Positions 642 through 59,994 of a DNA stretch of 64,000 nucleotides are shown here, piece by piece. The DNA lies in the NCBI GenBank assembly GCA_027484685.1, contig JAIXSO010000048.1, forward strand, positions 8,477-72,476, written 5' to 3'. The position numbers and the translations under genes were made by a program. Position 1 is the stretch's first letter, and each line of letters opens with the position of its first letter. The notes beneath the pieces are model-generated. The model saw only the letters and a list, made by a program, of their open reading frames with translations, did no database searches and had not been told where the DNA came from. The DNA comes from Bacteroidota bacterium. GTDB taxonomy: Bacteria > Bacteroidota > Bacteroidia > UKL13-3.

Positions 642-650
642 TTTTTTAAG

Positions 651-750
651 CAGCTGGCAGCTAGCTTCTGGCCTTTAAACAAATTATAGTAATAATCTTG
701 TAGCTTTGTAATCTCTAAATCTTCAAATCAAAAATCTTTAAATTAGATAC
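651..750. repeat. composite word-repeat leader: CTGGC-type block (651..674) followed by an AATCTCTAAATC / AAATCAAAAATC block ending at the SDR start codon
   Basis: cagctggcagctagcttctggcc ... gtaatctctaaatcttcaaatcaaaaatctttaaattagatac|ATG. The same two word blocks, in the same order relative to a start codon, recur at 53973..54112 on the minus strand. Confidence 0.7.
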
Positions 751-3952: not shown

Positions 3953-6064
3953 ATGAAACAAAATTACATGATAAAATTAACTGGATTTGTATTAATATTA
4001 TCTGCCTTATTATATGCTTGTAAGCCCGGGGCAAGCATTGGAGATGCACGAAAAGATTTTAAAGATTTAAAATATGCTCAAGCTGCTGAAAAATACAAAA
4101 AAGTTTATGGCATTACCAAAGACAAGGAAATAAAAAAAGAAGCAGCATTTTATGCAGCAGAATGCTACCGCTTGTCGAACAACTGGACAACAGCAGAAAG
4201 CTGGTACACCAAAGCAGTTCAAGTTGACCCAACTAATGCTGAGGCAAAATACCGCCAAATTCAAGCTTTAAAGTATTCCGAAAAATATGTTGAATCAATT
4301 ACAGAAGCCAATAAATACAAAAAAACGGTTGGTTCTGACCCTAAAATTGATTTAGAAGATTGCGGAAGTACAAACGCTCAAAAATGGAAATCAGAAAAAA
4401 CACGTTTTGTAGTTGAAAATGTAGCTAAACTTAACACTAAATACAGTGATTTTGCCACTATGTGGTACAGAAAAGACCAATTGATGTTTTCTAGCGATAG
4501 ATTAGAAGTTGGAGTAAGTGGTAAAGATAAATATGGTTGGTTTAATAATGGCTATTGCGATATTTATACTACTACCTTAAAATTAAACAAAAAGAATAAA
4601 GAAACTATTGAGAATTATAGTCCACCTGTTTTGGTTGATAAAAAGAATGTGAACGGAAAATGGAACGATGGAACGGTTTGTTTTGATGCCAAATTCACTA
4701 CTATGTATTTTACTAAATGTAATTATGGTGAAAAAAATGATGGTAAGGGCGCACATTGCAGAATTTACGAATCAAAATTAAATGGCACAGAATGGAGTGT
4801 ACCAATACCTCTTCCTTTCAGTACCGATTCATTTGATTGTGGTCAACCCTTTTTAAGCAAAGATGGAACTACGCTTTATTTCTCTAGTAACATGCCTGGT
4901 AGTACTGCAAAACCGGTAACAAGTGCTGAAAATCCTGAAGGGTTAGAATTAAGTAAAGATTTATACAGTGTAAGTTACAGTAAAAGAGGTAATGCTTGGG
5001 GCGATCCTGTAAATTTAGGTCCTACTGTAAATACTGATGGTGACGAAGGTTTCCCTTTCCAACACGAAGACGGAACATTATACTTTGCATCAAACGGCCG
5101 TTGCGGCATGGGTGGATTTGATATTTTCTACACCAAAGGTCAAGGTACTGATTGGAGTGATCCTATTAACATGAAAGCACCTATTAATTCAGGTGGTGAT
5201 GACTTTGCAATTATTTTTTCAAAAGATAAAGAAAGTGGTTTTTTCTCTTCAAATAGAATGAACGGAAAAGGTAGTGATGATATTTATAGATTTACCAAAA
5301 CGCCATTGGTATTTACTTTAAGCGGTGTTGCTCGTGATGAAAAAGATAATTCAATCTTAAAAAATACAACTATTCAATTTACTAACAGTTCAGATACAGT
5401 AAAATTGGTTGTTAAAACAGATGCCGCAGGTTCTTATAGAATAACCCTAAGAGCAGGAACAGATTACGACTTTTATGGTTCTAAACCATTGTATTACGAT
5501 AGTAAAATTTATGGAGCTACTACCAAAAACTTAGAAGTTTCAACAGATTTAGTTCAAGATTTAATATTAAAACCATTTGGAGACGATGTTTTTGATGTAA
5601 AAGGTATATTCTATGGATTAGATAGTGCTGATATCAGACCTCGCTCGGCAGAAATTCTAGACTCTTTGGTAATTGTTATGAATAAATATCCAATGTTAAA
5701 ATTTGAATTGGGTTCTCATACCGATTGTAGAGCTGATTCATTATACAATATCAAGTTATCACAAAGACGCGCTGATTCATGTGTTGGTTATTTAATTCGT
5801 CACGGTGTTGATTCAATGAGATTAGTATCGAGAGGTTATGGAGAAAATGAATTAGCGGTTCCAAAATGTGCTTGTGAAGGACCAAACGAAAGAATTGAAG
5901 GACAGAAATGTACTGAAGCCGAACATCAATTAAATAGAAGGACTACAGTAAAAGTTATAGATAAAAACTTTATTGGCATAACCAAACCGAAAAGTAATGA
6001 ACCTGAAGCTCCAAAAAACATTCCAGGTCAAAGAGTTAGACCAGGCACCCAACCAAGGAGGTGA
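3953..6064 (+). CDS. OmpA-family outer-membrane lipoprotein with TPR, PD40 (TolB-like) repeats, carboxypeptidase-regulatory-like domain and C-terminal OmpA/MotB peptidoglycan-binding domain
   Basis: Signal peptide with lipobox-like LLYAC. Repeated S.DG.TLYF.S motifs. C-terminal OmpA_C motifs FELGSHTDCRADSLYNIKLSQRRADS and GYGENE. Confidence 0.85.
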   Translation: MKQNYMIKLTGFVLILSALLYACKPGASIGDARKDFKDLKYAQAAEKYKKVYGITKDKEIKKEAAFYAAECYRLSNNWTTAESWYTKAVQVDPTNAEAKYRQIQALKYSEKYVESITEANKYKKTVGSDPKIDLEDCGSTNAQKWKSEKTRFVVENVAKLNTKYSDFATMWYRKDQLMFSSDRLEVGVSGKDKYGWFNNGYCDIYTTTLKLNKKNKETIENYSPPVLVDKKNVNGKWNDGTVCFDAKFTTMYFTKCNYGEKNDGKGAHCRIYESKLNGTEWSVPIPLPFSTDSFDCGQPFLSKDGTTLYFSSNMPGSTAKPVTSAENPEGLELSKDLYSVSYSKRGNAWGDPVNLGPTVNTDGDEGFPFQHEDGTLYFASNGRCGMGGFDIFYTKGQGTDWSDPINMKAPINSGGDDFAIIFSKDKESGFFSSNRMNGKGSDDIYRFTKTPLVFTLSGVARDEKDNSILKNTTIQFTNSSDTVKLVVKTDAAGSYRITLRAGTDYDFYGSKPLYYDSKIYGATTKNLEVSTDLVQDLILKPFGDDVFDVKGIFYGLDSADIRPRSAEILDSLVIVMNKYPMLKFELGSHTDCRADSLYNIKLSQRRADSCVGYLIRHGVDSMRLVSRGYGENELAVPKCACEGPNERIEGQKCTEAEHQLNRRTTVKVIDKNFIGITKPKSNEPEAPKNIPGQRVRPGTQPRR

Positions 6065-6078
6065 TGAATAAAACTAAA

Positions 6079-6111
6079 AGCCCGATAAATTAAATTTATC
6101 GGGCTTTTTTA
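6079..6111 (+). terminator. rho-independent terminator after the OmpA-family gene
   Basis: Stem agcccgataaat / atttatcgggct (12 bp), loop taa, then TTTTTT. Confidence 0.85.
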
Positions 6112-6129
6112 TGGATTATAATAGTTCAT

Positions 6130-6160
6130 AAAAAAAGCCATACAAAATTGTATGGCTTTT
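6130..6160 (-). terminator. rho-independent terminator after the HIT/greA genes (minus strand)
   Basis: Stem agccataca / tgtatggct. On the minus strand it is followed by a T7 run (complement of aaaaaaa at 6130..6136). Confidence 0.8.
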
Positions 6161-6176
6161 ATTTAATAATAGAAAA

Positions 6177-6569
6177 CTAAATATACTTAGCTATTGAATC
6201 TGCTATTTCTTGCATTTCCTCTTTGGAAAATGAAAGCTTTTTTCTTTCAAAATTCATATCATTTACACCATTTATAGGCATTAAATGAATATGAGTGTGC
6301 GGAACTTCTAAGCCAATAACAGTTACTCCAACTCTTTCACAAGGAATAGCCTTTTTAAGGGCTATAGCAACTTTTTTTGCAAACAAATGTAAGTTTGTAT
6401 ACAATTCGTCATCCAAATCAAATATATAATCTATTTCCACCTTAGGAAGTACCAGTAAATGACCTTTTGTTAGAGGACTAATATCTAAAAAAGCTAAAAA
6501 GCTATCATCTTCGGCAACTTTATAACAAGGAATTTCTCCTGCTATAATTCGAGAAAATATACTTGCCAT
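6177..6569 (-). CDS. HIT (histidine triad) family protein
   Basis: Histidine triad HTHIHLMP near the C-terminus. 130 aa, typical HIT size and N-terminus (IFSRIIAGEIP). Confidence 0.9.
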   Translation of the reverse strand: MASIFSRIIAGEIPCYKVAEDDSFLAFLDISPLTKGHLLVLPKVEIDYIFDLDDELYTNLHLFAKKVAIALKKAIPCERVGVTVIGLEVPHTHIHLMPINGVNDMNFERKKLSFSKEEMQEIADSIAKYI

Positions 6570-6574
6570 ATTGC

Positions 6575-7075
6575 TTAACTAAATGAAATAGTTAAAATTT
6601 CTAATTTAATAGTACCTGCAGGTGCGGCAATTTCAACTATATCACCCACTTTTTTACCCATTAAACCAGCACCAATTGGCGACTTTACTGAAATTTTTCC
6701 AATTTTAAAATCTGCTTCGTTTTCAGAAACAACAATATAAGTAAATTCTTTCTTTACATTATGGTTTAAAACTAATACTTTACTTAATAGCATTACTTTG
6801 CTGTTATCTAGCTTAGTTTCATCAATTATTCTACTTATTGCTAACAAAGATTCAATTTGAGAAATTTTAGTTTCTAAATGTCCTTGGTCTTCTTTTGCTG
6901 CATGGTATTCAGCATTTTCACTTAAATCACCTTTATCTCTGGCATCGGCAATTTGCTTCGAAATAAATGGGCGTTGAACAAATTTTAAATCGTGTAATTC
7001 TTTTTGCAATTTCTCGAAGCCATCTTTAGATAAATAATTAAGAGATGGTGAAGCCGATAAAGTTTTTTTTGCCAT
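6575..7075 (-). CDS. greA: transcription elongation factor GreA
   Basis: Coiled-coil N-domain with ARDKGDLSENAEYHAAKE and a C-terminal FKBP-like domain (SVKSPIGAGLMGKKVGD). Confidence 0.93.
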   Translation of the reverse strand: MAKKTLSASPSLNYLSKDGFEKLQKELHDLKFVQRPFISKQIADARDKGDLSENAEYHAAKEDQGHLETKISQIESLLAISRIIDETKLDNSKVMLLSKVLVLNHNVKKEFTYIVVSENEADFKIGKISVKSPIGAGLMGKKVGDIVEIAAPAGTIKLEILTISFS

Positions 7076-23530: not shown

Positions 23531-23577
23531 TTCATGATAACATAAAAAGAGACAGTCTCAAAAGTCTCAAATTGGTA

Positions 23578-23646
23578 GTCAGTTCGAGCGAAGTCGAGAA
23601 CTTAATATGCACGTTTTCAAAACATTTCGACTCCGCTCAATGTGAC
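23578..23646. repeat. GTCA...TGAC palindromic hairpin repeat, copy A
   Basis: gtcagttcgagcgaagtcgagaac-(23 nt)-tttcgactccgctcaatgtgac. The arms are near-identical to the copies at 44595..44645 and 52463..52520. Confidence 0.85.
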
Positions 23647-25107: not shown

Positions 25108-25273
25108 TGCTTCTAGCCGCTAGCTTCTGGCCGCTGGCTGTTTGTTAATATATTATAATTGTTTTTACTTTTTTAGCTTCTGGCAGCTGGCTAATTTTTA
25201 TTTGTTTAAATTATTTTACTCTTTTCTTAACTAATTTTTTTGGCTAGAGGCTAGCTGCCAGCAGCCAGAGGCA
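25108..25273. repeat. three CTGGC/GCCAGAAGC-type word blocks filling the fumC-pgk spacer
   Basis: Blocks at 25108..25140 (ttgcttctagccgctagcttctggccgctggctg), 25175..25193 (agcttctggcagctggcta) and 25242..25273 (ggctagaggctagctgccagcagccagaggca, opposite orientation). Related blocks at 651..674, 54087..54112 and 57727..57759. Confidence 0.8.
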
Positions 25274-25274
25274 A

Positions 25275-26489
25275 TTAGTTGTTAATGGCAGCTATCCCAG
25301 GTAATTCTTTCCCCTCAAAATACTCAAGCAATGCACCACCACCTGTACTCACATAACTTACTTGGTCTTCAAAGCCAAATTTAGCTACTGCAGCAGCACT
25401 ATCTCCCCCACCAATTAAGCTAAATGCACCATTTTTAGTAGCTTCAACTACTGCAATGGCAACGCTTTTTGTTCCATTTTCAAAATTGCTCATTTCAAAA
25501 ACACCCATTGGACCATTCCACAAAATGGTTTTAGAGTTTTTGATTACATCAGCAAAAGTTTGGCTTGCTTCAGTTCCAATATCTAAACCCATCCAACCGG
25601 TTTCAATTTTATGGTTGCTGCAATTTTTAAAATTAGCATCATTGCCAAATTTATCAGCAACCACCGAATCGGCTGGCAATAAAAGTTTAACGCCTTTGGC
25701 TTCCGCTTTTTTCAATAAATCTAAACAAAGTTCCAATCTATCATCTTCGCAAAGCGATGAACCAATTTCGTAACCTTGCGCCTTTAAAAATGTATAAGCC
25801 ATTCCGCCACCAATAATGATGTTATCAACGCTATTGATTAAATTTTCGATGATTAATAATTTATCAGAAACCTTAGCACCACCTGTAATAGCCGTGAATG
25901 GACGCTCTGCATTTTTCATTACCTTTTCGGCATTAGCAACTTCGTTTGCCATTACATAACCAAAACATTTTTCAGTTGGGAAAAATTGTGCTATAATAGC
26001 AGTACTTGCATGGGCACGGTGTGCAGTTCCAAATGCATCGTTTACATATACATTTCCCAGTTTGCTTAATTTTTCAGCAAAACCCACATCACCTTTTTCT
26101 TCTTCTTTATAAAAACGTAAATTCTCCAATAATAAAATTTCTCCAGCTTTTAAATTAGCTGCTTTATCAATTGCTTCTTGACCTATACAATCATTGGCGA
26201 ACTGAACATTTACACCAAATAATTCAGAAGCAGTAGCAATTACATGTTTTAACGAGTGCTTTTCAAAATCAACTGTTCCGTCTTCTTTTAATTTTTTAAG
26301 TGGGCGACCTAAATGACTCATCAAAATACAAGAACCGCCATCGGCCAATATTTTTTTAATAGTTGGCACTGTAGCACGTATGCGCGCATCGTCAGTTACA
26401 GCAAGCGTTTGTTTGTCTAGTGGCACATTAAAATCAACACGTACAAGTGCTTTTTTACCACTAAAATTAATTGAATCAACTGTTTTCAT
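25275..26489 (-). CDS. pgk: phosphoglycerate kinase
   Basis: From the ATG at 26489: [25 protein letters not shown], the canonical Pgk N-terminus. The 31 extra codons in the track ORF (to 26582) are hydrophobic or low-complexity and not Pgk-like. Confidence 0.95.
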
Positions 26490-26758
26490 GTATTTTATAT
26501 TTTTGATGTTGCGAAAATAGGATTTATACAAAATAAAACTAACGACTAAAATCAGTAAATAGCATTTAAAAGACATGAACAAAAACGTAATTGCTATGAA
26601 ATAGTAATGTAGTAATATTAAATGGAAAGATTAAATTAAAGTAAACATATTTCACTTCATCAATACACTTTAATCTTTTATTATTTAGCACTTTATATTA
26701 ACTAACATTCATTATTAAAAGAATATAAATATGTTTTTGTAATTTTTATAAAATATAA

Positions 26759-27790
26759 ATGACCTACTACATTCTGAAACAACCAACAATTTGGTCCTTA
26801 TTCCATTGAAAACCTTAAACATTATGTAGAAAATGGAAACGTACTTTTGTCGGATATAATAGAGAGTTCAACCAACGAAGAGCTTAATGTGAGGACAATT
26901 TTAAAGATGCAAAATGTAAACTATAAAATAAAAAATAATGGAAGTGTTATCAATCAAATTAAACTTATTGATAAGGATTTAATTATTCCGAAAGTGGATT
27001 TTATAAAGAAGGATATTTTAAACGATAAACGACTCATTTATTTATCATTATTTGGTTTAGCTCCCACATTTTTAATTAAATTTACTTTTAGTTCTTGGTT
27101 TACTTTTTATGCCATTGCATTGTACTTTTCTGCTATTTGGGGAATATTTTTTACTATGTTTTTAAAACCAATCAAGTAAAAACAAAACAACCATTTTACT
27201 TTTTTTTGCAACACAACTCGCAGCTTATTTTTTAGCCAATTTACATCTTTTGCAAGGCATAAGTACATTGTATTCCTTAACCAATTCAGATTCCATTTTT
27301 TTAAGGCTAGTAGGCTTTTTATTTGGTGTTGGCTTACTAGAAGAAACAATTAAAGCACTTCCTAATTTTCTTTATTTTAAAATTATCAAAATAACCACTA
27401 ATACCTCAAACTATAGCATATTATGGATTGATGTCGGGCATTGGTTTTGGAGTGTTAGAAGGCGTTTTATATCAAACTACTTTAAATACAGAATTAGGCT
27501 ATAATGAAGCTTTTTTTATGAATATAGCAAGGCTTACTTCATGGCCATTTTTACGTGCAATTTGGGCTGACGTTTCTGCTTATTTTTTATCACTTGTTTT
27601 TTTGTAACTTTTTAATCGTAAAAGTTTATATGTTTTGACCATAGCTATTCCTACTATTCTTAATGGTTTATACGACACTTTTGGATGAAGTATTTTAGGC
27701 TTGACACCAACCATTATTTCATTAATATTGCTCATATTTTACTTGATGAGAAGTAGCAAATTTCAATCTAAATTTTTAAATAATATATAA
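26759..27790 (+). pseudogene. decayed GYF_2-domain / PrsW-family intramembrane protease gene (at least 3 frameshifts and 2 in-frame stops)
   Basis: The reading frame must be switched near 26778, 27150..27180 and 27385..27395. In-frame TAA at 27605 and TGA at 27686. The pieces read MTYYILK|NNQQFGPYSIENLKHYVENGNVLLSD (GYF_2-like), LLEETIKALP (PrsW EExxK motif), YYGLMSGIGFGVLEGVLYQ and NGLYDTFG*. Confidence 0.65.
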
Positions 27791-27798
27791 CAGTATCA

Positions 27799-28596
27799 AT
27801 GAACGAATTATTACAAACTGCAACAAGCCTTTGGCAAGAAATTACTAATAATCCAGGAACTTCATTAGCAATTATTGGCAATCTAATTATAATAGAAAGT
27901 TTATTGTCGGTAGATAATGCTGCTGTATTAGCAACTATGGTAATGGATCTGCCTAAAGAACAGAGAGATAAAGCTTTAAAATTTGGAATTTTTGGAGCAT
28001 ACTTTTTTCGTGGTTTGGCAATGCTATTTGCTGCCGTTTTAATTAAAATTTGGTGGTTAAAACCATTGGGTGGTCTATACTTATTGTACTTAGTTTACGA
28101 TTGGTATAAAGGAAAACAATCAGAAACAAAAGAAGATGATTTAATAGATAAAAATAGCAACTGGCTTTATAAAATGACGGTTGGCTCTTTGGGCAATTTT
28201 TGGGCTACAGTTTGTTTGGTAGAACTTATGGACATGGCTTTTTCTATTGACAATGTTTTTGCGGCTGTTGCGTTTACGCCTAACATTATTTTGGTATGTA
28301 TTGGAGTATTTATTGGAATTTTAGCAATGAGATTTATTGCCCAATGGTTTGTTAAATTAATGGAAAAATATAACTTCTTAGAAACAGCTGCATTTATTGT
28401 TATTGGTATTTTAGGACTTAAATTATTGTTATCTCTTTACGAACATTTTTACCCAACTAGTTACATTAGCGAATTTTTTGGAAGCCATACTGCTGATATT
28501 GGTATTTCAATTCTAACAGTAGCAATTTTCTTTGTACCTATATTAACCAGTTTATTTTTTAATTGGCCAGCTAAAAGCAAAATCGAAAATGAATAG
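27799..28596 (+). CDS. TerC-family (DUF475-like) integral membrane protein
   Basis: Two SxDN motifs (LLSVDNAAVLATMV and FSIDNVFAAVAF) in a polytopic membrane protein. Confidence 0.8.
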   Translation: MNELLQTATSLWQEITNNPGTSLAIIGNLIIIESLLSVDNAAVLATMVMDLPKEQRDKALKFGIFGAYFFRGLAMLFAAVLIKIWWLKPLGGLYLLYLVYDWYKGKQSETKEDDLIDKNSNWLYKMTVGSLGNFWATVCLVELMDMAFSIDNVFAAVAFTPNIILVCIGVFIGILAMRFIAQWFVKLMEKYNFLETAAFIVIGILGLKLLLSLYEHFYPTSYISEFFGSHTADIGISILTVAIFFVPILTSLFFNWPAKSKIENE

Positions 28597-28945
28597 AGCT
28601 ATTTCTGGATTTCATATCCTATCAATACTTTCAGAGATTGATAACGATTTTAGCCCAAAAGAGGGTTTGGTTATTGTTGACTATTTAAAGAAAAACTTTC
28701 CACCACATTTATTTGTGTTAGATAGAGAAATGGAAATTTTAAGCAATTTAAAAAAAGATGAATATTTAACACATTTTATCAAATGCCTTGAAGAGTTTTA
28801 CAAAGATTCGACCGAGGAAGAAAGGGTAAAGTTTGTAAAATTTGCTATTAAAGTTGTAATGGCTAATAATAAAGTATCTAATGAAGAAAATATTTATTTG
28901 AATGAATTGTACAATGCATGGGCATTAGATAACAATAATTTTTAA
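28589..28945 (+). CDS. TerB-like small soluble protein (tentative)
   Basis: 118 aa. 8-nt overlap with the TerC-family gene. Helical protein with a VMANNKVSNEENIYLNELYN segment resembling the TerB-like fold family. Weak recognition. Confidence 0.45.
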   Translation: MNRAISGFHILSILSEIDNDFSPKEGLVIVDYLKKNFPPHLFVLDREMEILSNLKKDEYLTHFIKCLEEFYKDSTEEERVKFVKFAIKVVMANNKVSNEENIYLNELYNAWALDNNNF

Positions 28946-29040
28946 AATTGGCGTTGATTGCAATAATTGATTAGAATAATTAATCATAAATATTTTTTTC
29001 AAATTTATTACGATGATAGAAATTAATTCATGATCAATCA

Positions 29041-29124
29041 GGAAGAGTTCATTTTTACCAATAAAATAGATGAAATCAACTGTTTTCATCTATTTTATAT
29101 TTTTGCATTGCAAGGTTATACAAA
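29041..29124 (-). pseudogene. relic copy of the pgk promoter-proximal region plus first ~19 codons
   Basis: Ungapped plus-strand alignment at an offset of exactly 2600 nt: 26451..26505 versus 29051..29105 gives about 48/55 identities by eye, including the ATG and MKTVD codons. A further shared ttatacaaa follows an 8-nt indel. The relic frame reads MKTVDFIYFIGKNELFLID versus Pgk [19 protein letters not shown]. Confidence 0.6.
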
Positions 29125-29232
29125 CTTAAATCTAAAATCTAAAAATGGCATTATAAAATATACTTTGGTTATCTTGCTATTAAATAAAAACTATTTTTGT
29201 TTTGCAATCAGCCAATTTTAGCACCTATTCAA

Positions 29233-44553: not shown

Positions 44554-44594
44554 CCTGATTCCGCCTCAGCGGAGAAAGAACTATAATTGTAACA

Positions 44595-44645
44595 GTCATT
44601 TCGAGCGAAGTCGAGAAACGGTATCTCGACTTCGCTCGATGTGAC
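44595..44645. repeat. GTCA...TGAC palindromic hairpin repeat, copy B (most compact)
   Basis: gtcatttcgagcgaagtcgagaaa-cggta-tctcgacttcgctcgatgtgac. 22-nt arms with a 2-nt internal mismatch. Confidence 0.9.
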
Positions 44646-44672
44646 ACACCGCGCTTTATATGATAAATAAAA

Positions 44673-52420: not shown

Positions 52421-52462
52421 GTTAGGTTTGATCATCATTGCAATGGGTGAAACAATCTCTTT

Positions 52463-52520
52463 GTCATGTCGAGCGGAGTCGAGACATGGTTAAATATTTC
52501 TCGAATGCGCTCGAACTGAC
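52463..52520. repeat. GTCA...TGAC palindromic hairpin repeat, copy C
   Basis: gtcatgtcgagcggagtcgagaca-tggttaaatat-ttctcgaatgcgctcgaactgac. Confidence 0.85.
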
Positions 52521-52577
52521 TATTCAGCCATTGCAAGCAACCTCACCTGCAATAGCAGAGGACACCAAAAATACCGT

Positions 52578-53972: not shown

Positions 53973-54112
53973 GTTATTATTATTTGATGATTTTTGATTT
54001 AGAGATTTAAAGATTTTTTTGAATTGCTAAATTGTTAAATGGATGGATAGTTTAATTGTTATATTGCTTATTAAACTTTGCCAATTGCTAGAAGCCAGAG
54101 GCCAGCAGCCCC
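53973..54112. repeat. composite word-repeat leader (second copy of the module at 651..750, on the minus strand)
   Basis: Coding strand: ggggctgctggcctctggcttctagc ... aaatctttaaatctctaaatcaaaaatcatcaaataataataac|ATG. It shares the 12-mers aatctctaaatc and aaatcaaaaatc and the 11-mer aatctttaaat with 651..750. Confidence 0.7.
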
Positions 54113-56406: not shown

Positions 56407-56805
56407 CTAAAATTTTTCTCCTTTTTTATAAGGTATATAAACAAATTGAGCCGAAGTGGGTGTGAGCCAAAGCACACAACAATGGGTTTTGTAGCTCTTA
56501 TAGTTTTGTTTAAAATCTTCTTGTTTTGTTTTTTCAATAACTTTACGCTCCACCATTTCTTCTATTGTAGAGGCATAAATATCGTTATCGCGAGCAAAAT
56601 CGGCACGAGCCAAAATAAGTTCGCCAATTTTCACCTCATGTTCCGATGCTATAAAAATGGGAAACTGGGTAAATTTTTCTTTTACCATATCAATGGCCAC
56701 CTCTTTTATTGATTCACTAAAAAAGTCAATATCGGCCTTTAAAGCATTTAGCTGAGTTTCAAATGTTGCATTCATTATTTGGGATGGCGAATATAATAAT
56801 TGCAT
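56407..56805 (-). CDS. hypothetical cytoplasmic protein
   Basis: The frame is open from the ATG at 56805 (MQLLYSPSQIMNATFE...); the track uses a TTG 4 codons upstream. It stops 3 nt before the GT2 gene start. No family recognised. Confidence 0.4.
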   Translation of the reverse strand: MQLLYSPSQIMNATFETQLNALKADIDFFSESIKEVAIDMVKEKFTQFPIFIASEHEVKIGELILARADFARDNDIYASTIEEMVERKVIEKTKQEDFKQNYKSYKTHCCVLWLTPTSAQFVYIPYKKGEKF

Positions 56806-56835
56806 AGCATTGCGCAAAATTGGCAGTAGTTAATA

Positions 56836-56927
56836 GTTTATAGACCATAGACGATAGAGATTTTATGCCTTTAAAAAGTAAAAACTTGTGACAAATAGCT
56901 ATGGTCTATTCATCATAGTCTATAAAC
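56836..56927. repeat. TATAGAC/CATAG word repeats in inverted arrangement in the divergent spacer upstream of lptB
   Basis: gtttatagaccatag (56836..56850) is matched in inverse orientation by ctatggtctat (56899..56909) and gtctataaac (56918..56927). Confidence 0.6.
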
Positions 56928-56996
56928 AATTATAAAAAAATAGCATTATTGGCATTATACTTGCAAAGTAATTACTGCTGTTTAAAGTAAAAATTT

Positions 56997-57719
56997 ATGA
57001 AGTTAGAAAGCCACAATTTAGTTAAGCGTTATAAAAAAAGAACTGTTGTAAACAATGTATCTATTGAGGTAGAACAAGGCGAATGCGTTGGTTTACTTGG
57101 ACCAAATGGAGCAGGAAAAACCACTACTTTTTACATGACAGTAGGTTTAATTAAACCTGATGAAGGAACTGTAACTTTAGATGGTGAAGATTTAACCGCC
57201 ATGCCCATGTACAAAAGAGCTCAAAAAGGTTTAGGCTACTTACCGCAAGAAGCAAGTATTTTCAGGACTTTAAGTGTAGAAGATAATATAAAAGCGGTAA
57301 TGGAACTTACCGATATGACCAAAGAAGAACAGCGCGATAGATTAGAATCGTTAATTGACGAATTTACCTTACACAAAGTGCGTAAAAGCATGGGAAATGT
57401 ATTGAGTGGTGGCGAAAGACGCAGAACTGAAATAGCGCGAGCATTGGCTGTAAACCCCAAATTTATTTTATTAGATGAACCTTTTGCTGGTATTGACCCC
57501 ATTGCTGTAGAAGATATTCAGGTAATTGTAGCTAAACTAAAACATAAAAATATTGGTATTTTGGTAACTGACCATAATGTTCACGAAACACTTTCGATAG
57601 TAGACAGAGCTTACTTACTTTTTGAAGGTAAAATTTTAAAAGCCGGAACTGGCCAAGAATTAGCCGATGATGAAATGGTTCGTAGGGTTTATTTAGGACA
57701 GAATTTTGTGTTGAGGTAG
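56997..57719 (+). CDS. lptB: LPS export ABC transporter ATP-binding protein
   Basis: Walker [10 protein letters not shown], signature LSGGERRR, Walker [13 protein letters not shown], and the characteristic C-terminus [13 protein letters not shown]. Confidence 0.93.
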
Positions 57720-57726
57720 CATTTTT

Positions 57727-57759
57727 AGCTTCTGGCTGTTGGCTTCTGGCAACTGGCAG
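57727..57759. repeat. CTGGC/GCTTCTGGC word block immediately after lptB
   Basis: agcttctggctgttggcttctggcaactggcag. Confidence 0.7.
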
Positions 57760-57930
57760 GGTTATTCTTGTATTTGCAATATGTGTTGTTTTGAATTCCA
57801 ATTCTTCTGAAAACAAACCAGAATTTGTTAGAAATAGGAAAGTTTAGGAAAAAATATTCCTATTAGACAAGTTATGTACAATTCTAAAAAAAACGTTCTA
57901 CGTAAATAAATTTATTCAGACAATTCCAAA

Positions 57931-58896
57931 ATGGTTACAAAATATCTTCAAAGACAACTTCTCATCTGGAAAATCATTCTCGTTTTGACAGCGTGCAATA
58001 GCGGACAACAACCTGATAAAAAAAAATCGGTTAGTAATACAATTACGGACAATGCCCCACTTCTTGACAGTTGCAATAAAATATTGGACCAACTTTTAGA
58101 AATAGATGAATCTAGAGTTATAGATACACTTTCATTTGAAAAATATTATTCAAGCGAAACAATAAAACGGAAAGAAATTAATCTCACATATAATTCGCTT
58201 ACTTTTCATACAAGCAATAAGCAATTTGACAAGCAACTTAGTGCCTTGACAAATTCTTTAATTTCAAAAGATTATATGGAATTGAAAAAAGATTATTTTT
58301 TATTCAGAAAAGATGAAACGAAAAAGGAAAAAGAATCAGGAAAATACCGTTATGGTTGGGACATTGAAATATCTCCAGTTTATGTAAATCAGAATTCTGT
58401 TTCTCTTGCTATTATCAAGTGGTCATATACTGGCGGAATACATGGTTCATTAGATATTTCCTATAAGAATTATATTTTCCGAAATGGAAAAACAAAAATA
58501 TTAACCAATTATGATTTTATTAACGATGAACTAAATTTAGATACTGTTTATTTTGACCCGATTGCGAATAAGGTAATTTTTGAACATCAAAAAAACTCAG
58601 GGTGCTACTTAGTCTGTTTCGGTTGGTCAGAAAAAATTATTTCATTCAAAGAACTTTTTTCTTCATTTTCAGAAGATAGTTCTTTTAGTAATAGGTATTT
58701 TGTTTTTAATTCTGACGGTATTAAAATAAAATACTATGGGGACTACTATGGGGGAGCACAGGGAGTGGACATATACGATTTACAAGACAAAGTAATTCCC
58801 AAAAAAGAATTTCAAAAAGTTGCAAGCAAGATAATTTTGCAACTTTGGAACGACAGTTTATCTAAAAGGGAAAACAGCAGCAGCAGGCACGAATGA
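57931..58896 (+). CDS. lipoprotein with DUF3298/RsiV-like signature (tentative)
   Basis: Lipobox-like LVLTACNSG. The WSYTGGIHGS block resembles the GGAHG motif of the DUF3298/DUF4163 family. The gene looks more AT-rich than its neighbours by eye. Confidence 0.45.
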   Translation: MVTKYLQRQLLIWKIILVLTACNSGQQPDKKKSVSNTITDNAPLLDSCNKILDQLLEIDESRVIDTLSFEKYYSSETIKRKEINLTYNSLTFHTSNKQFDKQLSALTNSLISKDYMELKKDYFLFRKDETKKEKESGKYRYGWDIEISPVYVNQNSVSLAIIKWSYTGGIHGSLDISYKNYIFRNGKTKILTNYDFINDELNLDTVYFDPIANKVIFEHQKNSGCYLVCFGWSEKIISFKELFSSFSEDSSFSNRYFVFNSDGIKIKYYGDYYGGAQGVDIYDLQDKVIPKKEFQKVASKIILQLWNDSLSKRENSSSRHE

Positions 58897-58949
58897 AAGC
58901 ACTAGGCATAAACGGATTTGGCCAATGTAGCGGTTTAATCCTAAGCAGA

Positions 58950-58996
58950 CACATTTGTAGTTATTGATAATTTGGTTCTTAATAACTACAAATGTG
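58950..58996. promoter_or_regulatory. perfect 16-bp inverted repeat (hairpin) downstream of the cassette gene
   Basis: cacatttgtagttatt (58950..58965) / aataactacaaatgtg (58981..58996), 15-nt loop. No T-run follows on the plus strand. Confidence 0.6.
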
Positions 58997-59109
58997 GTAA
59001 AAATCTACCATTCTTTTAACGAAAAAACTATTTTGCCCAATTTTAAAAAAGCCTACCTTTGATGCTATTAAATGATACTATCAGGAAGCCGCTTTGTGGC
59101 AATTCAGTT

Positions 59110-59199
59110 AAAATTCTATAAGCTTGAACTGTTTATAAACTAGCTAATGACGAAATAGATTGCAAGATGTATTTAGGACAAAATTTCGAATTAAGATAA
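59110..59199 (+). pseudogene. relic of an lptB 3' end (last 29 codons plus stop, with two in-frame stops)
   Basis: Ungapped 90-nt alignment with lptB 57630..57719 gives 63/90 identities counted by eye. Translation is KIL*A*TVYKLANDEIDCKMYLGQNFELR* versus [29 protein letters not shown] (17/29 identical). The relic stop codon (59197..59199) directly abuts the MOSC ATG at 59200. Confidence 0.65.
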
Positions 59200-59994
59200 A
59201 TGACTCAAATGAAGTATTGTATTTCTGAAATTTATATTTACCCTATAAAATCGTTGGGCGGAATTAAACTTACCGAGAGCAATATTGAGCCCAGAGGATT
59301 GCAACACGATAGAAGGTGGATGCTTTGCAATGAAAACAACCACTTTATTACACAACGTGAGTTTAAAGAATTAGCACTATTTAAACTCAGTAAAGAAAGT
59401 AACTTCTTTGCCATTAATTACCAAGAAAACAGTTTTCAAATTCCTTTTGAAACAGGTGGCCAAACAGAAACCGTTAAAGTTTGGGATGATGAATGCTTGG
59501 CTATAGAATACACCTTAGGTTCTGCATGGTTTAGCAAAATGTTAAATATGACTTGCAAGTTATTCTACATGCCCAATCAATCGGAAAGAAAAGTGAGCGA
59601 AAAATATGCCCATAATAACGAAATAACCAGCTTTAGCGATGGTTTTCCTATTTTGATAATTGGTCAAGAATCACTCAATTATTTAAATACCAAATTACCA
59701 AAACCAATTGGTATGGATAGATTCAGGCCAAACATAGTTTTTACCGGAGGCAAACCTTTTGATGAAGACCATTTTAAGGATTTTAGCATAGGTAAAAATT
59801 TGCTAAAAGGAGTAAAACGATGCAGCCGTTGTGTAATTACCACCATTGACCAAAATACAACCAAAACAAGTTCTGAACCACTGAAAACATTGGCCACTTT
59901 TAGAAATATGGACAATAATGTACTATTTGGCCAAAATCTCATCACCACAAAAATTGAGCATGAAATTAAAATTGGTGATGAAATTATTTTATAA
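59200..59994 (+). CDS. MOSC domain protein (MOSC N-terminal beta-barrel + MOSC)
   Basis: N-terminus ISEIYIYPIKSLGG, RPNIVF, and the conserved Cys block RCSRCVITTIDQNT. Confidence 0.85.
   Translation: MTQMKYCISEIYIYPIKSLGGIKLTESNIEPRGLQHDRRWMLCNENNHFITQREFKELALFKLSKESNFFAINYQENSFQIPFETGGQTETVKVWDDECLAIEYTLGSAWFSKMLNMTCKLFYMPNQSERKVSEKYAHNNEITSFSDGFPILIIGQESLNYLNTKLPKPIGMDRFRPNIVFTGGKPFDEDHFKDFSIGKNLLKGVKRCSRCVITTIDQNTTKTSSEPLKTLATFRNMDNNVLFGQNLITTKIEHEIKIGDEIIL

Follow-up and report, generated by a model that had tools for sequence, protein, structure and literature searches.

A decayed duplicate of the lptB 3' end marks an old 1480-nt insertion, probably made by integrase-free recombination, in a Bacteroidota genome

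In a 64-kb stretch of a Bacteroidota genome (64,000 nt; hereafter the window), a degraded duplicate of the final 30 lptB codons was found to mark the site of a 1480-base insertion. The insertion is old; locus L004 carries a homologous relic, likewise decayed and sharing derived changes. It was most likely produced by the ordinary recombination machinery of the cell rather than by a dedicated enzyme of a mobile element, and the reading preferred here, with reasonable though far from full confidence, is that of a scar left by integrase-free insertion through general recombination, with lptB as the homologous anchor. The pgk gene of the same window bears the same kind of scar. The features of the lptB locus are as follows.

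56997..57719, plus strand: lptB, encoding the LPS export ABC ATPase, intact, 240 aa (open reading frame, Pfam ABC_tran)
57626..57719, plus strand: duplicated lptB 3' end, the copy that still functions (final 30 codons and stop TAG)
57728..57757, plus strand: heptad array (GCNNCTR)x4-5, beginning 9 nt past the lptB stop; left edge of the insert
57758..57930, plus strand: conserved cassette leader, roughly 170 nt (GGGTTATTCT.ATATTTG...), from alignments and nhmmer
57931..58896, plus strand: cargo gene for an orphan lipoprotein, 321 aa, with a weak PdaC/DUF3298-type domain
58950..58996, plus strand: hairpin of 16+ bp, 54 nt past the lipoprotein stop (dG -21.8 kcal/mol, z -5.0)
59016..59082, plus strand: relic of a Fic promoter region (TTTG at 59032-59035, 18-nt spacer, TACCTTTG at 59054-59061)
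59083..59109, plus strand: Fic coding stub, the former ATG (now AGG) and 8 codons, ending at the illegitimate joint
59110..59199, plus strand: relic of the resident lptB 3' end (30 codons, two internal stops, stop TAA)
59200..59994, plus strand: MOSC-domain gene, once the direct neighbour of lptB; gene callers place its start at 59209

The lptB product shares 74-100% amino acid identity with at least 160 loci. When 57630-57719 was aligned without gaps with 59110-59199, 63/90 nucleotides were identical, as were 18/30 codons including the stop and 17/29 without it, and the relic translation read KIL*A*TVYKLANDEIDCKMYLGQNFELR*, with two in-frame stops; the nucleotide and amino acid counts and the two stops of the original prediction were thus reproduced exactly. 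A repeat search returned the pair as a direct repeat of 93 nt (57626-57718 and 59106-59198, 71% identical, spacing 1480), in which the longest identical run was 11 nt (TATTTAGGACA). The formal statistics that had been called for were equally clear. In a scan of the 90-mer against all 90-mers of the window on both strands (mean 24.4 matches, sd 4.3), the relic, with 63 matches, was the sole outlier (z about 9), the next best giving 43-44, and in self-BLASTN of the window the lptB/relic pair ranked second among the off-diagonal matches (E = 1.3e-5), the pgk pair ranking first. Positions 59197-59202 read taaATG, as had been predicted, the relic stop directly abutting the MOSC ATG. The relic agrees with L001 at 5/5 sites where the current lptB end departs from it. 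The locus is identical in an independent assembly (L081) and is fully covered by contigs from three runs. Additionally, a 10-nt palindrome (TAAAATTTTA) is present at the insertion site.

The former contiguity of lptB and the MOSC gene, proposed from the window alone, was confirmed by empty sites. In L001 (about 92% nucleotide identity) the order is lptB-TAA-ATG-MOSC, with no DNA between the genes, and in a contig from metagenome X4 position 57713 is followed directly by 59194, exactly 1480 nt being missing. The depth in X4 is about 1-2 over the cassette versus 20-40 on the flanks. Similarly, L010 and L082 lack the insert present in L011, the loci being otherwise collinear; L082 and L083 were the useful close relatives among the matches listed in the LptB metagenome scan. 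Recombination with empty alleles may keep the lptB site polymorphic.

The insert is a composite of the heptad array, the leader, the lipoprotein gene, the hairpin and a Fic promoter with its stub. The lipoprotein gene and the hairpin were found as predicted, and the CTGGC word repeat is real, although its unit proved to be the heptad of the array; the description as a one-gene cassette did not hold, since on the right it ends in what is left of a second gene, a stub made up of the Fic promoter and 9 codons, and on the left in a leader shared with other cassettes. Five heptad arrays were observed in the window against none expected, and arrays lie 3-15 nt past stop codons in 10/13 cases, with presence or absence varying between close relatives and some arrays following genes with no cassette nearby. 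An array follows the lptB stop at all eight lptB-linked cassette loci, among them L081 (the window's own allele), L004, L005, L007, L011, L083 and L162, the array of the last being broken by a small hairpin, and at none of the empty sites. The order lptB, array, leader is contiguous in all eight. The leader gave nhmmer matches in L004, L005 (two copies), L007, L011 and L083 (E = 1e-32 to 1e-50), and array and leader occur twice in tandem in L005. The leader probably supplies the cargo gene with its promoter and 5' UTR; consensus folding of the leader gave a weak hairpin only (-6.6 kcal/mol, a few covarying pairs), and a structured RNA is not claimed. Among 5.8e9 proteins the lipoprotein matched none but itself, and among 1.84e9 representatives it had eight remote relatives, the nearest on a 994-nt contig without context. 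The cargo differs between loci, the window and L004 holding different lipoprotein genes. The hairpin at 58950-58996 is probably a terminator, without a U tract. An Rfam scan of 56800-59300 gave no match, and no plasmid or phage similarity was found for the insert.

At the right end, 59016-59090 is 87-88% identical to the promoter region and start of the intact Fic genes in L011 and L083, the promoter relic being matched by nhmmer with E = 3e-21. The Bacteroidetes promoter consensus is TTTG/TAnnTTTG, and TTTG-N18-TACCTTTG (59032-59061), which we take to be a putative promoter motif of this type, now faces the MOSC gene; the retained Fic promoter probably drives MOSC now. TAAAAT keeps the spacing of intact fic genes, exactly 26 nt from the Fic start codon, and the stub is identical to the L162 allele at 12/19 positions (counted by eye). 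Stub and relic are joined at a microhomology of 12/13 nt (TAAAATaTTAAAA / TAAAATtTTAAAA) between fic codons 10-13 (TAAAATATTAAAA) and lptB codons 211-214 (TAAAATTTTAAAA), both of which encode KILK, and the joint lies inside the shared TAAAAT.TTAAAA (59109-59121) at the left edge of the relic. Loci L083 and L162 are donor-like, with the same order and an intact Fic gene. Both also carry a second relic, a 194-nt copy (89% identical) of the 3' end of a convergent BNR/Ycf48-like gene, which joins the Fic promoter at a TATTT microhomology. Among the cassette-bearing lineages, lptB is 86-96% identical at the nucleotide level.

The pgk case had been put forward as the mirror image of the lptB case, and both the mirror architecture and an empty allele were found. 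Its features are the following.

26433..26569, minus strand: duplicated pgk 5' end, the copy that still functions (about 15-20 codons and about 77 nt upstream)
26570..29154, no strand assigned: insert of 2585 nt absent from relatives (X13 and X5 contigs)

Contigs from X13 (51.9 kb) and X5 join 26569 to 29155, skipping the 2585 nt. The insert holds fragmented ORFs with TerC and TerB-like genes (Pfam), and the relic pgk 5' end lies within it at about 29033-29154; the duplication is about 125 nt, with a repeat alignment score of 123 versus 36 ± 6 for shuffles. In the pgk relatives L167-L169 the gene order upstream of pgk differs and no empty site was found, and the novel pgk joints showed no heptad array.

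For the lptB insertion, incoming DNA from a related lineage would have carried lptB, the heptad array, the leader, a variable small gene, the Fic promoter and Fic, an order proposed because L083 and L162 have it, while in the recipient cell lptB would have abutted MOSC. On the left side, homologous recombination may have occurred within the highly conserved lptB; on the right, an illegitimate join would have formed at the 12/13-nt microhomology. In an equivalent topology, the fragment would have recircularised at the microhomology and entered through one crossover within the 90 nt of lptB. Both routes would duplicate the last 90 nt of lptB, the gene-body copy remaining functional and the copy before MOSC, fused to the 9-codon fic stub, presumably decaying neutrally. 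The cargo gene may have been swapped later by exchange between the conserved leader and the right end. A length of 90 nt is inefficient for a crossover, an objection to the single-crossover route. The original prediction that the insert brought a replacement end was not demonstrated: per-segment identity matrices of 17 alleles revealed no 3' mosaicism or discordant junction in the current lptB, the 3' end being 96% and the remainder 94% identical to L001, and over the final 90 nt the filled loci form no cluster. A further objection is that no donor-derived mosaic tract was detectable in the current gene.

The insertion was compared with known modes of gene capture. Homology-facilitated illegitimate recombination (HFIR) combines homologous recombination at one end with an illegitimate joint at the other, usually at 3-10 bp of microhomology, and experiments in Acinetobacter, S. 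pneumoniae and P. stutzeri have been summarised (PMC3240628). In E. coli conjugation, most events involved a recircularised molecule and a single crossover, with locus duplications of 109-950 bp (PMC3240628). The present scars share the one-sided homologous anchor (lptB, which is contiguous with array and leader, and pgk), the illegitimate joint at short microhomology (12/13 nt at fic/lptB, TATTT between BNR gene and Fic promoter in L083) and the lack of a dedicated recombinase in the ORFs tested. The insert is absent from collinear relatives at both lptB (L001, X4, L010, L082) and pgk (X13, X5). The microhomology at lptB, at 12/13 nt, is longer than the usual 3-10 bp, and the duplications of 90, about 125 and 194 nt compare with the 109-950 bp of the single-crossover variant. 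No recipient DNA was deleted at the lptB joint, and the duplication is an objection in that classical HFIR usually deletes and only the single-crossover variant predicts it directly. Unlike the experiments, which relied on laboratory selection, the footprint described here is natural and ancient, lies at essential housekeeping genes, and was inherited and possibly spread between lineages.

The absence of a recombinase gene, claimed in the original prediction, was upheld: Pfam revealed no recombinase or transposase domain in the cassette ORFs of five of the eight lptB-linked loci (window, L004, L011, L083 and L162) or of the first L005 cassette, the cassette of L007 and the second of L005, which run off their contigs, lying outside the scan. 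The scanned ORFs thus hold no tyrosine or serine recombinase gene of the kind that defines integrase islands. An integron cassette would show attC-like ends and an integrase, and no attC-like imperfect inverted repeats were found at the cassette ends and no integrase in the tested ORFs. A transposon or IS was not indicated either, with no terminal inverted repeats, a 90-nt duplication and no transposase.

Integrase-mediated genomic islands use tRNA genes or protein genes as targets, inserting at their 3' ends, and are flanked by attL/attR direct repeats. The lptB locus resembles them in that the 3' end of a conserved gene was targeted, the gene stayed intact and a partial copy stands at the far end. 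This classic signature, together with a relic whose starting point in lptB coincides between two lineages, the palindrome within the site and cassette ends conserved across lineages, would fit a degenerate integrative element whose recombinase was lost or acted in trans, an lptB-like attP having recombined with an attB in lptB to give attL and attR. Such an origin is nevertheless unlikely. Besides the recombinase-free ORFs, the joint cuts the fic cargo at codon 10 and keeps the spacing exact, a feature unexpected for an att site, and the other relics differ in target, length and junction (BNR gene, 194 nt; pgk 5' end, about 125 nt). The lptB repeats are diverged along their full length, with no identical core now apparent and no identical run above 11 nt; decay could have erased a core.

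The heptad arrays and leader might themselves be active signals promoting recombination (Chi-like or uptake-like) or unrecognised recombinase sites, which is judged quite improbable. If they were, the ends of conserved essential genes would be preferred landing pads for promoter-bearing mini-cassettes in this freshwater Bacteroidota clade, and a dedicated system for cassette capture, not described to date, would have left the scars at lptB and pgk. The proposal that array and leader form the recognition module of an integron-like or Xer/dif-module-like system setting promoter-bearing cassettes directly past the stop codons of conserved genes could draw on their occurrence before every lptB-linked cassette, in tandem in L005, and on the position and variability of the arrays, but is very improbable: it would produce neither a 90-nt gene-end relic nor a truncated fic, the ORFs scanned include no recombinase to go with it, arrays also follow genes without a cassette, and the pgk joints have none. 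Chance similarity, local duplication or an assembly artefact without any insertion, which AT-rich sequence and a metagenome-type assembly might invite, is refuted by the 90-mer scan, the L004 relic and the identical 1480-nt boundaries of the empty alleles, with L081 and the contigs of three runs also against it.

Integrase-free recombination anchored in lptB also has parallels in the C-terminal displacement at Rhs/CDI loci and, in Vibrio cholerae, the stepwise displacement of T6SS effector-immunity modules (PMC5361080). In both, a conserved gene body anchors incoming DNA that displaces the former 3' end, which is left as an orphan farther downstream, and repeated events build arrays, comparable to the tandem leaders of L005. 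The displaced end at lptB, however, is a non-functional 90-nt ABC ATPase relic rather than a toxin tip with its immunity gene, and the cargo consists of small orphan lipoprotein or Fic genes with no logic of toxin diversification. In aquatic bacteria, flexible genomic islands of the replacement and additive kinds are likewise described as strain-variable spots between core genes whose cargo is exchanged by homologous recombination in conserved flanks (PMC4033161). The lptB spot differs in being tiny (1-3 kb), in lacking a tRNA or integrase and in keeping a gene-end relic that records how it opened.

Laboratory work has established that foreign DNA with one-sided homology can become trapped in the chromosome, and clear natural footprints of such trapping have mostly been reported for toxin loci. 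The lptB scar is a natural footprint of this known laboratory mechanism, and its joint can be read base by base, from anchor, 12/13-nt microhomology and truncated cargo to donor-like order and empty alleles. Scars in two essential housekeeping genes within one 64-kb window suggest that conserved essential genes anchor gene gain in tightly packed genomes, lptB and MOSC having had no intergenic base between them, and that only events duplicating a gene end survive. The recurrent integration mode suspected originally is best explained by known general recombination, either HFIR or a single crossover of a recircularised fragment, and does not call for new machinery. If this holds, scans for gene-end relics would give a simple map of integrase-free gene acquisition in uncultured bacteria.

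Locus L011 shares the relic boundary and, apparently, the fic/lptB joint, and has a different gene downstream. This recurrence in a second lineage is an objection in its own right, requiring either that the insertion spread later, with the relic serving as homology arm on the right, or that the same microhomology was used again. The region preceding the relic in L011 was considered as a plain second Fic promoter, for which nhmmer and BLASTN found nothing, and its local alignment with the composite L083 segment scored 61 versus 32.5 ± 5.4 for shuffles (0/500).

The last 30 codons of lptB (57630-57719) were aligned without gaps to the 90 nt before the MOSC gene (59110-59199), with 63/90 nt identical and, at the protein level, 18/30 positions identical, the stop being counted. 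The second copy, a decayed relic, translates as KIL*A*TVYKLANDEIDCKMYLGQNFELR*, and the MOSC ATG lies directly 3' of its TAA. This alignment had been counted by eye in the original prediction, and formal statistics upheld it. When the lptB-end 90-mer was scored against all window 90-mers on both strands, the relic reached 63 against a background of 24.4 ± 4.3 matches (maximum 44), and self-BLASTN of the window returned the pair as the second-best off-diagonal match (E 1.3e-5), after the pgk pair. A repeat search recovered it too, as direct repeats of 93 nt spaced 1480 apart. The duplication of the lptB 3' end is real and well above chance expectation. The relic appears to be the end of the resident lptB, since it carries the state of a relative's locus, L001, at five of the five sites where L001 and the current lptB 3' end disagree, TAA stop included.

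An LptB scan of species-representative genomes gave at least 80 loci, from freshwater Bacteroidota MAGs. L001, approximately 92% identical to the window in nucleotides across 13 kb and with an LptB of 99.6% amino acid identity (single difference R114K), reads lptB-TAA-ATG-MOSC with no intervening DNA. Among public metagenome contigs placed on the window, one from run X4 passes through lptB to 57713 and resumes at 59194, skipping exactly 1480 nt, and X4 depth is ~1–2 across the cassette versus 20–40 on its flanks. Filled and empty alleles, with and without the cassette, therefore coexist in nature, and the predicted former contiguity of lptB and MOSC, broken by an insertion, was confirmed. A second, independent assembly of the window's own allele was also found (L081). 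In X4 contig 15, which carries the empty allele, lptB is 99% identical to the window (57429-57713) and MOSC 93% (59194-59688), a change that could mean either that recombination broke off at the insertion site or that the contig is a chimera of strains.

Locus L004 also holds a cassette between lptB and MOSC, with a shorter relic just before MOSC, and at four-fold sites it has diverged from the window by 0.34, versus 0.25 for L001. Because the L004 and window relics have the derived changes ATAAACTA, AATGA and GATT in common, the insertion is older than the window/L004 split, with which the distance of the relic to the intact end (JC 0.30 to L001) agrees. Since L001 is nearer the window than filled L004 is, its empty state must be secondary, through precise loss or allelic replacement by an empty allele.

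The predicted one-gene cassette proved not to be so simple: the 1480-nt insert is composite, its right end being a truncated Fic gene. Its left end consists of the following.

57728-57757, + strand: heptad array (GCNNCTR)x4-5, first base nine nt past the lptB stop
~170 nt directly after the heptad array: leader

Array and leader are conserved past the stop of lptB in L004, L005 (where they occur twice in tandem), L007, L083 and L162, with weaker conservation in L011, and the cargo genes behind them differ among these six loci. The tandem copies of L005 (5921-6040 and 6750-6870) stand on both sides of a 110-aa lipoprotein gene, which suggests successive insertions at lptB, with older cassettes pushed downstream. 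The leader contains a weak conserved hairpin, AAACCTTCC...GGAGAAGGTTT (at 57813-57860 of the window and in the leaders aligned to it from L004, L005, L007, L083 and L162), with a few compensatory changes and a consensus energy of just −6.6 kcal/mol. In the window the cargo gene encodes a lipoprotein of 321 aa, in which Pfam finds a weak PdaC domain; the protein is nearly an orphan in database searches, and a strong hairpin lies 3' of its gene. Further right, 59016-59090 matches the promoter region and beginning of the intact Fic genes of L011 and L083 at 87–88% identity; the former fic ATG is now AGG (59083-59085), and exactly 26 nt past the first base of that ATG, a distance shared with intact fic genes, the sequence passes into the relic. 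The joint lies within TAAAAT.TTAAAA, common to fic codons 10–13 and lptB codons 211–214 with one mismatch in 13. A Fic gene was thus truncated at its tenth codon, and the stub was joined to lptB −90 through this microhomology.

In L083 and L162 the order is lptB, heptad array, leader, small gene (164 or 280 aa), P_fic (the putative promoter region upstream of the Fic gene) and intact Fic, which is exactly that expected of the DNA entering the MOSC lineage. Both loci bear a second, similar scar, in which 194 nt from the 3' end of a convergent BNR/Ycf48-like gene are present as an additional copy at 89% identity.

L083, 1700-1890 and 2900-3100: BNR/Ycf48-like 3'-end pair
L162, 4830-4903 and 5981-6052: BNR/Ycf48-like 3'-end pair

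This relic includes the BNR gene's own heptad array and is situated upstream of P_fic, which it joins at a TATTT microhomology; the intact BNR-gene end lies downstream of Fic, and the relic is a further gene-end duplication around an inserted Fic gene. The Fic protein of L083 (1938-2891) has homologues at 82–90% identity in many Flavobacterium genomes and in Bacteroidota MAGs unrelated to them; it is far more conserved than its hosts, suggesting frequent horizontal spread. In a different genome, L165, a 420–560-nt direct duplication covering a TerB-like gene (1894-2446 and 6060-6813) encloses IS1595 transposase, AP-endonuclease and Fic genes.

A second lineage is represented by L011, in which lptB is followed by a 3.1-kb cassette of three genes (UPF0158 protein, lipoprotein and Fic), ending in a 90-nt relic (77% identical) and then a 609-aa ABC transporter gene; in L010 and L082 that transporter gene lies directly 3' of lptB, with no cassette. 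L011 probably has the same fic'/lptB' joint as the window, because the 165 nt before its relic align significantly with the composite segment of L083 (BNR relic, P_fic, fic start), with a score of 61 against 32.5 ± 5.4 for shuffles (0/500). Relic substitutions are independent between the window and L011. Either the scar spread early between lineages by ordinary double crossover, with lptB as left and the relic as right homology arm, or two separate events made use of this long microhomology.

The mirror-image case predicted at pgk was likewise borne out, as a second insertion that is flanked by a duplicated gene end. The pgk 5' end (~15–20 codons and ~77 nt upstream; 26433-26569) recurs at ~29033-29154 with an alignment score of 123, versus 36 ± 6 for shuffles, and a 51.9-kb contig from metagenome run X13 and a contig from X5 pass from 26569 straight to 29155, leaving out 2585 nt.

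26570-29154: pgk insert, with fragmented ORFs (26847-27700), TerC (27799-28596) and TerB-like (28589-28945)

As originally stated, no recombinase accompanies the lptB insertion: Pfam gave no integrase or transposase in the cassette ORFs of the window, L004, L005 (first cassette), L011, L083 and L162, the scan leaving aside L007 and the second L005 cassette, which run off their contigs. Repeat searches found no terminal inverted repeats at the insert, which had no similarity to plasmids or phages, and its region had no Rfam match. The scar is consistent with homology-facilitated illegitimate recombination, in which homologous exchange in a conserved anchor gene is combined with an illegitimate joint at microhomology, and the data agree equally well with its documented variant, in which a linear fragment recircularises and a single crossover then inserts it, so that part of the homologous locus becomes duplicated. 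Most such events in E. coli gave duplications of 109–950 bp (PMC3240628), and gene-end displacement at Rhs, CDI and T6SS loci is a natural analogue (PMC5361080). Two observations make a dedicated site-specific system less probable: the joint truncates a cargo gene, and the junction sequences of the three scars are unrelated (lptB 90 nt, BNR gene 194 nt, pgk ~125 nt). We are moderately confident that the lptB scar is the remnant of a past recombination event that needed no integrase, at a hotspot 3' of lptB that varies between strains; the scar is not an active element. Essential genes plausibly stay similar enough across lineages to anchor recombination, one reason for scars to sit there, and where genes abut, as in lptB-TAA-ATG-MOSC, presumably only gene-end-duplicating outcomes spare both neighbours. 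The mechanism class is already known from experiments, to which this site adds a natural case, resolved to the base, at essential housekeeping genes and with clade-specific heptad arrays and a shared leader.

That the cassette brought a replacement end would be a hypothetical corollary of this recombination model. The predicted mosaic junction was not found in the per-segment comparison of lptB alleles: the last 90 nt of the current gene are 96% identical to L001 and the first 630 nt 94%, and filled loci do not cluster in the last 90 nt. A foreign origin of the current 3' end is accordingly not supported. The only hint of an end travelling with the cassette is the stop codon, which is TAG in all filled loci of the first comparison (the window plus five others, L004, L005, L007, L011 and L083) and TAA in many empty loci, but TAA also in donor-like L162.

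Tandem heptads (GCNNCTR)x4-5 occur in the window at 650-672(+), 25109-25138(+), 25176-25195(+), 25243-25272(-), 54080-54109(-) and 57728-57757(+), with 0 expected by chance. Those abutting genes (the DMT_6 gene, pgk, the SUI1 gene and lptB) start 3–15 nt past the stop codon in the orientation of the gene. Across 1.56 Mb of loci, the arrays were confined to the closest clade, 10/13 following a stop codon, and their presence varies between close relatives, L001 having none after the SUI1 gene and the pgk relatives L167-L169 none between pgk and fumC. A second, REP/MITE-like family of hairpin-forming units of type GTCATTTCGAGCGAAGTCGAGAA was found at 23577-23600, 44594-44646 and 52462-52524; the segment 52356-52577, which holds one such unit, is a small insertion, as it is missing from L001.
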